Assembly (NCBI RefSeq): GCF_003704095.1
Contig: NW_020845097.1
Location: 186,001-250,000, forward strand
Direction of reading: 5' to 3'
DNA from: Pocillopora damicornis
Taxonomy: Eukaryota
DNA length: 64,000 nucleotides
The notes beneath the pieces were generated by a model, which saw nothing but the letters and a program-made list of their open reading frames with translations, was not told the DNA's origin and ran no database searches. Shown here one piece after another: positions 31,123-32,829 of the stretch (the first letter of the stretch is position 1; each line of letters starts with the position of its first letter). Position numbers and translations under genes: made by a program.

Positions 31123-32829
31123 ATGGACGGTGCTATGAGTACGTTTGGTCTGCCACCGTTCGACATTGGTCAAGATTTTAGTATTCCGCCTCATTTACGC
31201 AACCCGGAAAATTTTAATGCTCGCTTTCCCAATGCACGTTTTCCCAGCGCAATTTCGAACATTTTCAGGGCCGGAGATTACGCCAGCAAAAGCGTTAGTG
31301 ACGATCATGGCGGTCGCCACATGGATATGAGCAATGGAATAGAAGACATCTCCGAAATTGGAGACAACGAGCTGCCCATTTCTGTGGCCGCTATGAATGA
31401 ACCTTATCTTACCTCGGGGACTACGACGCTTGGATGCACACAACAACAACACAGTTCTTTACACACAACGATTCCGCCGCTGCAATCGTCCAATTTTTTC
31501 TCCGACCCCGTCACTTCTGAAGCGGACTCTTATTCGAGGGACATGCCATTCGCGAGCCCTATGGATTTCAATATAAAGAACGAACAAGAGCCTCGATTTC
31601 ACCTAAATCCAAGTTCTGCTATCTCAAGCATATCGAGTGCACTACAGCCCAACAAACCAAACATCATGCGTTCGATTTACGGCCCCAACTTAAATCCCTC
31701 TTTCCCAGATCCAGCCTCTCAGTCGATGTACACTTACATTCATCAAACGCCGGTAAGCAACGATTCAAAAGCGCCGCAGTTTTACCGACCGTTTCCCGGC
31801 TTCCCGCCTTTTGATACGCCAGAATCCATTCAGGACAATCACGGCTTTTCAAAGTCAGACGACAGCCGAATTTTTTCCCCGGTTCCCAGCAGTCACAGGC
31901 CTCAGATTATCGACCGTCAAAAGCCACAAGGCACCAACCGAGCGGACGCTCACGACGTTGAAGATGTTGACGATGCTAACCGTTGTAAAAACACAGTGGA
32001 AGGTACTAAAACGTCAGTTCGTCGCCTCAAGAAGTGGTACAAAGACAAGTACGGCAAATCTATCGACATGAACACTGTTACACGCCAAATGGCTCTAGAA
32101 ATGTTGAAAGATTTCTTTCTCGAAATTCGCGACACGCGGCCAGGTAAAGAAGGAAACGAATACGAACCTGTGACACTGACAACGTACAGAAATGGTCTGA
32201 GGAGATATTTCCTCGAAAGAAAGTGTCCACCCGCTGTAGAAAACTTCGATTTGGCCGATCGAGAATTCGATGTAGTCAACTATGGCCTGGTCTCAAAGAG
32301 GAACGAGCTCAAGCGCAAAGGAAAAGGAAACCACCCAAACGTGGTTGAAAGCATTACCGAAGAGCAGTTAGAGAGAATGTGGGCCTCGGGAGCTATTGGA
32401 GTGCACGCACCGAGACCTTTATTACGACTCCAGTGGTGGATTAACACAGTCAGTCATGGAATAAGAGGACGCATGGCCCACCATGACCTAAGCATCGATG
32501 ACTTTCGCATCTCTCGCGGCCCAGACGGCAAGATCATAATTGACCACATGAAAGCTGGGAACAAGAGACCAAGGGCGGACGAAGAGAAAGACAACCCTAG
32601 AAGCAAGAAAAAGTGCAAAGCCCGGGTAGCAGCCACCGATGGAAGCGAACGAGATCCCGTACGTGCGTTCGAGGTGTACCTCCGTCACCGTCCACCTGGT
32701 ATCTCGTCGTTTTATCTCACCCCCAAGCACAAGCCTAAGGGAGATATCTGGTTCAATAAAGTGCCCATGGGCAAAAATTCTATCGGAAGAATCATGAGGG
32801 AAATCAAGGCAATTGCTGGGATAGGATAA
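31123..32829 (+). CDS. Intronless DUF3504 / Crypton-type tyrosine-recombinase-derived protein (KCTD1/ZMYM/QRICH1/KIAA1958-like C-terminal domain) with a P/S/Q-rich N-terminus
   Basis: 568-aa ORF with family motifs KNT...FFLEIR...GNEYEPVTL..YRNGLRRYF, ELKRKGKGNHPN, P..LL...WW.....GIRG...HHDL, DPVRAFEVYL.HRP, FYLTP and WF.KVPMGKNSIG.IM. Confidence 0.88.
   Translation: MDGAMSTFGLPPFDIGQDFSIPPHLRNPENFNARFPNARFPSAISNIFRAGDYASKSVSDDHGGRHMDMSNGIEDISEIGDNELPISVAAMNEPYLTSGTTTLGCTQQQHSSLHTTIPPLQSSNFFSDPVTSEADSYSRDMPFASPMDFNIKNEQEPRFHLNPSSAISSISSALQPNKPNIMRSIYGPNLNPSFPDPASQSMYTYIHQTPVSNDSKAPQFYRPFPGFPPFDTPESIQDNHGFSKSDDSRIFSPVPSSHRPQIIDRQKPQGTNRADAHDVEDVDDANRCKNTVEGTKTSVRRLKKWYKDKYGKSIDMNTVTRQMALEMLKDFFLEIRDTRPGKEGNEYEPVTLTTYRNGLRRYFLERKCPPAVENFDLADREFDVVNYGLVSKRNELKRKGKGNHPNVVESITEEQLERMWASGAIGVHAPRPLLRLQWWINTVSHGIRGRMAHHDLSIDDFRISRGPDGKIIIDHMKAGNKRPRADEEKDNPRSKKKCKARVAATDGSERDPVRAFEVYLRHRPPGISSFYLTPKHKPKGDIWFNKVPMGKNSIGRIMREIKAIAGIG

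Follow-up and report, generated by a model that had tools for sequence, protein, structure and literature searches.

We analysed a window of 64,000 nucleotides of the Pocillopora damicornis genome (contig NW_020845097.1, positions 186,001 to 250,000), in which an open reading frame (ORF) had been predicted to encode a domesticated Crypton tyrosine recombinase. The ORF (31123-32829, plus strand) comprises 568 codons and ends with the residues IKAIAGIG followed by TAA (Table 1); as detailed below, it encodes the coral orthologue of Clytia WegA1. At least half of the words of the stretch were found in 20 of the 21 sequencing runs listed, 10 of these 20 being recorded as RNA. RNA contigs from four RNA runs span ~31.0-34.1 kb and have no joints within the ORF. 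One of them, of 3188 nt, corresponds to 30976-34163 and is unspliced across the ORF. RNA contigs differed from the ORF at three positions, all synonymous, and no run had an alternative letter at the stop codon, so that the predicted intact, single-exon ORF was confirmed. These contigs are informative on cover and on missing joints, not on start sites, levels, stage or tissue. The TATA box of the original prediction is present and conserved, but contigs of four RNA runs start 5′ of it, at 30779-30994, and we regard TATAAATA as a candidate start signal of the gene. A start at 31043 occurs in two runs that were guessed to be RNA, and two unlabelled runs cover the entire stretch. A scan for sigma-70 promoters was set aside as irrelevant for an animal gene.

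Table 1. Features of the WegA1 locus in window coordinates
Feature	Position	Strand	Basis or remark
Upstream non-coding region	29344..31098		84% identical in coral locus L048 (dS ~0.8-1.2)
Distal conserved non-coding element	29930..30013	+	79% identical in L053
Proximal conserved non-coding element	30857..31004	+	75% identical in distant L053, where synonymous sites are saturated
TATA box TATAAATA (candidate)	31030..31037	+	Conserved in 9/11 related loci having upstream DNA
Single-exon ORF, 568 aa, coral orthologue of Clytia WegA1	31123..32829	+	ORF, RNA contigs, homology
N-terminal region, aa 1-275	31123..31947	+	Acidic and rich in P and S; disorder predicted; coral dN/dS 0.09-0.13
Helical core-binding (N-terminal clamp) domain, aa ~276-400	31948..32322	+	Model/fold matches to Cre, XerD, QRICH1
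Truncated catalytic domain (DUF3504), aa ~410-568	32350..32826	+	Pfam, alignment, fold
R448 (GIRG), first catalytic Arg of the recombinase	32464..32466	+	Present in 42/42 orthologues
Basic low-confidence loop, aa 481-499, KRPR...RSKKKCK, candidate NLS	32563..32619	+	Alignment, model
Final helix, aa 553-565, putative counterpart of Cre recognition helix J	32779..32817	+	Model aligned to Cre 29-275
TAA stop	32827..32829	+	Identical place in 13/13 related loci; downstream sequence unconserved
Likely 3′ UTR, ~1.3 kb	32830..34163	+	AATAAA at 34144; most runs have RNA contigs ending at 33992-34163

Beyond the WegA1 ORF, ~40 kb of the window (~15100-56200) contain no ATG ORF of at least 120 aa and no obvious coding exon. 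Non-coding blocks at 34504-35859, 38979-40395 and 42389-42682 within this coding-poor region are conserved in other corals, and the region resembles a regulatory desert around a developmental gene. Elsewhere in the window we found exons of what we take to be an HMG-box gene resembling HMG20A/B (7683-15079, minus strand), a gene in two frames that presumably encodes a RING/B-box/coiled-coil/filamin/NHL protein (1447-4055, plus strand), and what we assume to be a single-exon gene for a rhodopsin-like GPCR (56276-57460, minus strand). Upstream of WegA1, RNA joints connect ~22951 with 27413 (AG before 27413, plus strand) and ~28105 with 22343 (GT donor, minus strand), suggesting two overlapping spliced RNAs 5′ of the gene (22320-22951, 27413-28482) with no obvious coding frame. 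Degenerate copies (68-89%) of window positions 30955-31112, that is, of the proximal promoter, TATA region and 5′ leader, are present on contig C1521 (G000) without a WegA1-like frame behind them (L039 2777-2902 and 4780-5008; L040 2618-3045). At 24056-24184, facing poly-T and poly-A runs ~60 nt apart form a simple inverted repeat.

A protein search with aa 270-568 returned 52 matches, 42 of which are 67-99% identical to the query; identity then drops to 39-44% in the other 10. The named orthologues come from stony corals (Orbicella, Oculina, Acropora, Montipora), anemones (Nematostella, Actinostola), octocorals (Paramuricea, Dendronephthya), scyphozoans (Rhopilema, Sanderia) and hydrozoans (Hydra and Clytia, the latter being WegA-I). 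These are cnidarian names only, in agreement with the predicted restriction to this phylum; as most rows lack species names, ‘cnidarian only’ rests on the named orthologues. One orthologue row is labelled as a cyanobacterial MAG and lies on a 1188-base contig, which we read as host contamination. The coral protein is 73% identical to Clytia WegA1 (P0027) over the C-terminal half and 67% identical to the Hydra protein P0043 (XP_002153857). The supplement to the WegA1 paper (PMC4169000), in the part available, gives a 1749-nt ORF and XP_002153857 as the Hydra orthologue. This ORF fits the 582-aa P0027, the WegA1 morpholino matches the start of P0027, and XP_002153857 is P0043; these ties identify the gene in the window as the coral WegA1 orthologue. 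The original prediction had presented the locus as the best candidate for an undescribed system and had itself named clear orthology to a described gene as grounds for rejecting this, so the claim of novelty falls. Clytia WegA1 (UniRef A0A069DMM2) shares architecture, end point and clade with the coral protein, while its N-terminus is mostly unalignable to that of the coral and is N-rich.

HMMER searches against 1.84 billion representatives found three full-length WegA1 clusters plus fragments, then a sister transposon family, then generic Cryptons. In a 36-row tree, 16 orthologues formed one branch (100/100) that divides into Anthozoa (octocorals and hexacorals) and Medusozoa (scyphozoans and hydrozoans), matching the species tree as judged from the rows bearing species names. 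The DUF3504 clusters of a protein atlas were mostly cnidarian. No fused WegA1 form was found among 6373 candidate proteins of 1137-3245 aa, which is weak evidence. Nematostella ao81 (JGI 239479), a DUF3504 gene of the apical organ and a few aboral ectoderm cells, may be the WegA1 orthologue of this species; an accession search gave no link between it and the Nematostella orthologue P0012.

DUF3504 is the sole Pfam domain in the protein (residues 412-562, E 2e-17). The C-terminal half is therefore of the DUF3504 type and carries GIRG, as predicted, and Pfam likewise bears out the absence of a BTB, MYM or CARD-like partner domain. The recombinase-derived part begins further upstream, at about residue 276, and its core-binding domain lies outside Pfam DUF3504. 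Residues 1-275 contain 12% P, 14% S and only 5% Q and have a net charge of -11, and SEG masks just two short stretches in the protein (residues 163-172 and 273-284). The N-terminal 275 aa are compositionally biased, not low-complexity; of the P/S/Q/F-rich, low-complexity region initially described, the richness in P and S stands, but not that in Q nor the low complexity. The P/S bias persists from corals to Hydra despite diverging sequence. The NLS-like patch has the motifs described, KRPR at 481 and RSKKK at 493, but both lie inside the loop of the recombinase’s catalytic lysine, the second half of which (the RSKKK side) aligns with KRARKY of related transposons, and KRPR is missing from the medusozoan orthologues shown. 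K481 aligns with the TK lysine of the transposons and is retained in anthozoan rows only, being lost in the medusozoan rows shown.

The predicted end of the protein ahead of the remaining catalytic motifs proved to be a common feature of the orthologues. They lack the second Arg, the His and the Tyr nucleophile; 40 of the 42 end at the same helix as the coral protein, which stops three residues after it, and none has the later recombinase motifs. No variation was seen across 38 orthologues at 151 of 289 positions; K or R occupies 34 of these invariant positions, which include R448 and three basic residues of the last helix.

A structural model of aa 280-568 (mean pLDDT 81, pTM 0.51) matched best to QRICH1 in Zincore (Foldseek E 1.7e-8, Z 14.3, rmsd 16.9, 244 aligned), followed by Cre (Z 11.3, rmsd 8.3, 236 aligned, Cre residues 29-275) and by XerH, XerA and XerD (XerD Z 7.8). 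Hence, the comparison with Cre and XerD that had been suggested for this protein points to a common two-domain fold. A PDB search with the single sequence gave no significant match (QRICH1 E 0.28). The comparison with Cre and QRICH1 is one of aligned ranges, not a residue-level alignment, and the pTM of 0.51 and the rmsd of 8-17 Å on Cre and QRICH1 mean that the model does not settle how the two domains are placed relative to each other. The major-groove recognition helices of Cre are B, D and J according to the accessible text of PMC5766204; helix J comprises residues 257-264, with H289, R292, W315, Y324 and the C-terminal synapsis helix beyond it (accessible part of bioRxiv 2020.05.24.113654). 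These elements beyond Cre residue 275 have no counterpart in WegA1. Since the model maps to Cre 29-275, WegA1 appears to retain the whole DNA-gripping clamp, minus the cutting and oligomerising parts.

The closest relatives of WegA1 are members of an anthozoan CryptonA family (P0044-P0052) with 39-44% identity over the whole clamp, 44% being the best identity to an intact transposon family. Both share the diagnostic words EYEPxTLxTYRNGLRRYFL, PPAxxNFD and RDP. The sister family retains R, K, R, H and Y, with S or T standing in for the first His of H-x-x-R, and in 8 of the 10 matches it runs on past the end of WegA1 with xxGRK, LTGH and SY; the other two are truncated. Unlike WegA1, animal CryptonA proteins (P0044-P0052) extend a further ~65-140 residues, carrying xxGRK, GH and Y, and have short N-termini; they are present as scattered broken copies, whereas WegA1 is single-copy. 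All five sister-family loci fetched from the coral’s own genome are broken or internally deleted copies that are 72-91% alike at the DNA level, and pieces of the sister transposon are present in four different gene models of one anemone. In these respects the sister family behaves as a transposon. Three proteins (P0162, P0163 and P0167) considered as WegA1 fusions were rejected, as they consist of sister-transposon pieces joined to BTB, EGF or phosphatase domains; they stem from gene models of a single anemone, which we take to be insertions or chimeras. WegA1 and the sister family form a single branch in the 36-row tree (100/100) and in a 65-row quick tree (SH-aLRT 100), both midpoint-rooted and both without WOC, ZMYM, QRICH1, KCTD1 and KIAA1958. 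A phylogeny with Crypton elements, proposed earlier as a check, thus makes it well supported at the sequence level that WegA1 arose from a Crypton lineage and has the intact members of that lineage as sister group.

Could the ORF instead be a transposon copy, recent or in decay, that is cut short by a premature stop? Its single exon and its close resemblance to transposon recombinases would suit this explanation, and a tblastn match to a transposon protein continues 15 codons beyond the stop, where the frame resembles the transposon’s next motif. We rejected read-through or a hidden last exon as the source of this similarity and attribute it to chance, because the sequence there varies among the 13 related loci and the RNA contigs have no joint in the ORF. 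The genome contains one full-length match among 33, the runner-up being 49% identical over part of the query and carrying a stop, and a 4-kb DNA search of the genome recovered only the locus itself and short promoter-like pieces; many near-identical copies, the expected mark of a recent element, were not found. All 13 related loci have TAA at the same site, with no conservation 3′ of it. We calculated dN/dS by the Nei-Gojobori method for 8 of these loci, leaving out four near-duplicates and one fragment. Three of the 8 comparisons were saturated. The five unsaturated comparisons with the window gave dN/dS values of 0.006-0.009 for aa 276-568 (dS 1.1-2.0, hence rough at such depth) and of 0.09-0.13 for aa 1-275. 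The recombinase-derived part is therefore under strong purifying selection. At locus L054, all 17 blastn blocks were collinear with window positions 22965-42682 (~20 kb). In agreement with the original prediction, which saw no transposon ends, we found no convincing terminal repeats within 24000-40000. Of two features expected of an active CryptonA, an intact R-H-R-Y-type active site is absent from the gene product, and several dispersed copies with unrelated flanks were not found in the genome. Single copy, common stop, unconserved sequence beyond it, dN/dS below 0.01, collinear flanks and a species-congruent tree refute the decaying-copy explanation, and the loss of the active site, the tree, the dN/dS values and the collinear flanks sustain the view of a catalytically dead, domesticated Crypton recombinase.

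What is known of the gene comes from Clytia. According to the accessible parts of Lapebie et al. 2014 (PMC4169000), WegA1 is up in Wnt3 knockdown and down in Fz1/Stbm knockdown and is expressed in the aboral half, and a single non-toxic morpholino against it brought about massive premature ingression together with an excess of endoderm. DUF3504 and a putative NLS are noted there, and bilaterian orthology is left open; the words Crypton, transposon and recombinase do not occur in the main text as available. In the accessible parts of two Clytia preprints, WegA1 serves to mark the aboral side. Kojima and Jurka 2011 (PMC3212892) traced DUF3504 to Crypton recombinases and described four animal domestications; the list, in the portion available, holds no cnidarian gene, and the Nematostella and Hydra accessions are missing from the six supplements. 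The available text of the 2026 Glomhopper paper (PMC13465315) mentions neither WegA nor cnidarians. We found no paper linking WegA1 to Cryptons, in a search outside of which lay most subscription journals, Repbase reports and preprint supplements, so that absence is not proven. Separate publications already cover the WegA1 gene, the DUF3504 domain in it and the derivation of DUF3504 from Cryptons.

We propose that a CryptonA tyrosine recombinase was domesticated to give WegA1. The remaining 290 aa are predicted to fold as a recombinase C-clamp with equivalents of Cre helices B, D and J. Lacking the helices for DNA cutting and synapse building, the protein would grip DNA without cleaving it, and the disordered, acidic N-terminus may recruit co-regulators. 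By analogy with Clytia, we assume that the coral protein would be up in Wnt3 knockdown and down in Fz1/Stbm knockdown and would restrain ingression in the aboral territory. DNA binding and activation we infer from the fold and from relatives. Overall, we assign a probability of roughly 0.6 to the reading that this CryptonA-derived WegA1 orthologue likely regulates transcription in aboral ectoderm by binding DNA without cutting it, its disordered arm serving as effector. The domestication would be old, predating the split between Anthozoa and Medusozoa, which is placed well over 550 million years in the past. For WegA1, whose knockdown gives a strong gastrulation phenotype in Clytia but for which no molecular mechanism has been proposed, the reading as a truncated recombinase clamp supplies a testable one.

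The main rival keeps the domesticated gene and changes its mode of action: as a Zincore-like coregulator, the dead fold would dock on DNA-bound factors, for example zinc fingers, with little preference of its own. The fold need not read sequence alone, because its best structural match, QRICH1, is a coregulator that acts with SEPHS1 on zinc-finger factors, as indicated by the title of PDB 9hjt and by the accessible parts of citing papers. The top fold and profile match is indeed QRICH1 of the Zincore-ZFP91-DNA structure, and QRICH1, WOC and ZMYM2-4 likewise lack motifs after the same helix, the QRICH1 match stopping at 763/776. QRICH1 and WegA1 also have in common a long biased N-terminus, a core-binding domain and a truncated catalytic domain. 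However, their identity is only 18-19%, WegA1 has the RG motif that is missing in WOC, ZMYM and QRICH1 and 34 invariant basic residues besides, and it has no other DNA-binding domain, and we consider a coregulator of this kind unlikely. A host role as dominant-negative repressor of the related Crypton family, binding element ends without cutting, would draw on the persistence of the sister transposon in anthozoans and on the capacity of a nucleophile-free clamp to block recombination sites. Yet near-invariance over five cnidarian groups and the conserved non-coding elements suit a developmental role better than an arms race, as do the Wnt-dependent, patterned expression and gastrulation phenotype in Clytia, and such a repressor seems very improbable.

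WegA1 might instead be the cnidarian orthologue of bilaterian WOC/ZMYM/QRICH1, from one domestication before the cnidarian-bilaterian split. This is allowed by the lack of motifs past the last helix in WOC/ZMYM/QRICH1, that is, by a common truncation point, and QRICH1 is the top structural match. A separate WOC gene was not seen in the coral genome, which is incomplete and gave no match to zf-FCS (MYM finger); PF25561 (the QRICH1 domain) has 25 matches in the genome and none in the window. Against a shared origin, WegA1 and an intact transposon family are 44% identical and have the diagnostic words in common, a profile of WegA1 plus the sister family scores just 25.5 bits on QRICH1, and no sequence of the WOC/ZMYM/QRICH1 type occurred among 146 further representative matches scanned. 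Pfam and the RNA contigs show neither MYM fingers nor coding introns in the gene, whereas WOC, ZMYM and QRICH1 have common intron positions (PMC3212892, accessible part), and the RG motif is retained in WegA1. Hence, on sequence grounds, WegA1 is likely independent of WOC/ZMYM/QRICH1, and a single early domestication is decidedly doubtful. A fuller version of the non-cutting regulator reading holds that WegA1 is a sequence-specific transcription factor from an independent and very old cnidarian-stem domestication that checks epithelial-mesenchymal ingression in the aboral ectoderm downstream of Wnt/PCP, and that the cut after helix J is a repeated route by which recombinases turned into regulators; we offer it tentatively, as a possibility that falls short of even odds. 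If true, cnidarians and WOC/ZMYM/QRICH1 arrived at this cut independently, and the ancestral binding site should be visible in the donor family that survives.

WegA1 would extend the four animal Crypton domestications of Kojima and Jurka by one that is cnidarian-wide. Like WOC/ZMYM2-4/QRICH1, KCTD1 and KIAA1958a/b, it is a conserved host gene built on a CryptonA recombinase without the second Arg and the Tyr; its DUF3504 lies in one exon as in KCTD1 and KIAA1958, and its C-terminal cut is that of WOC/ZMYM/QRICH1. It differs from the bilaterian genes in being cnidarian, in having no BTB domain or MYM fingers, in keeping the first Arg, and in a donor family that is still recognisable. The survival of this transposon family is unusual and allows the gene and its ancestor to be compared side by side. 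Elsewhere in this genome, long open DUF3504 frames at L011:1174-2610 (C1579) and L013:961-2292 (C787) have N-H-x-L-R and no later GH...Y, and judged by their sequences they are possible further domestications. Six other proteins (P0304, P0232, P0203, P0290, P0171 and P0181) combine DUF3504 with KRAB/C2H2 fingers or consist of three tandem DUF3504 units, and are either real fusions or gene-model artefacts.
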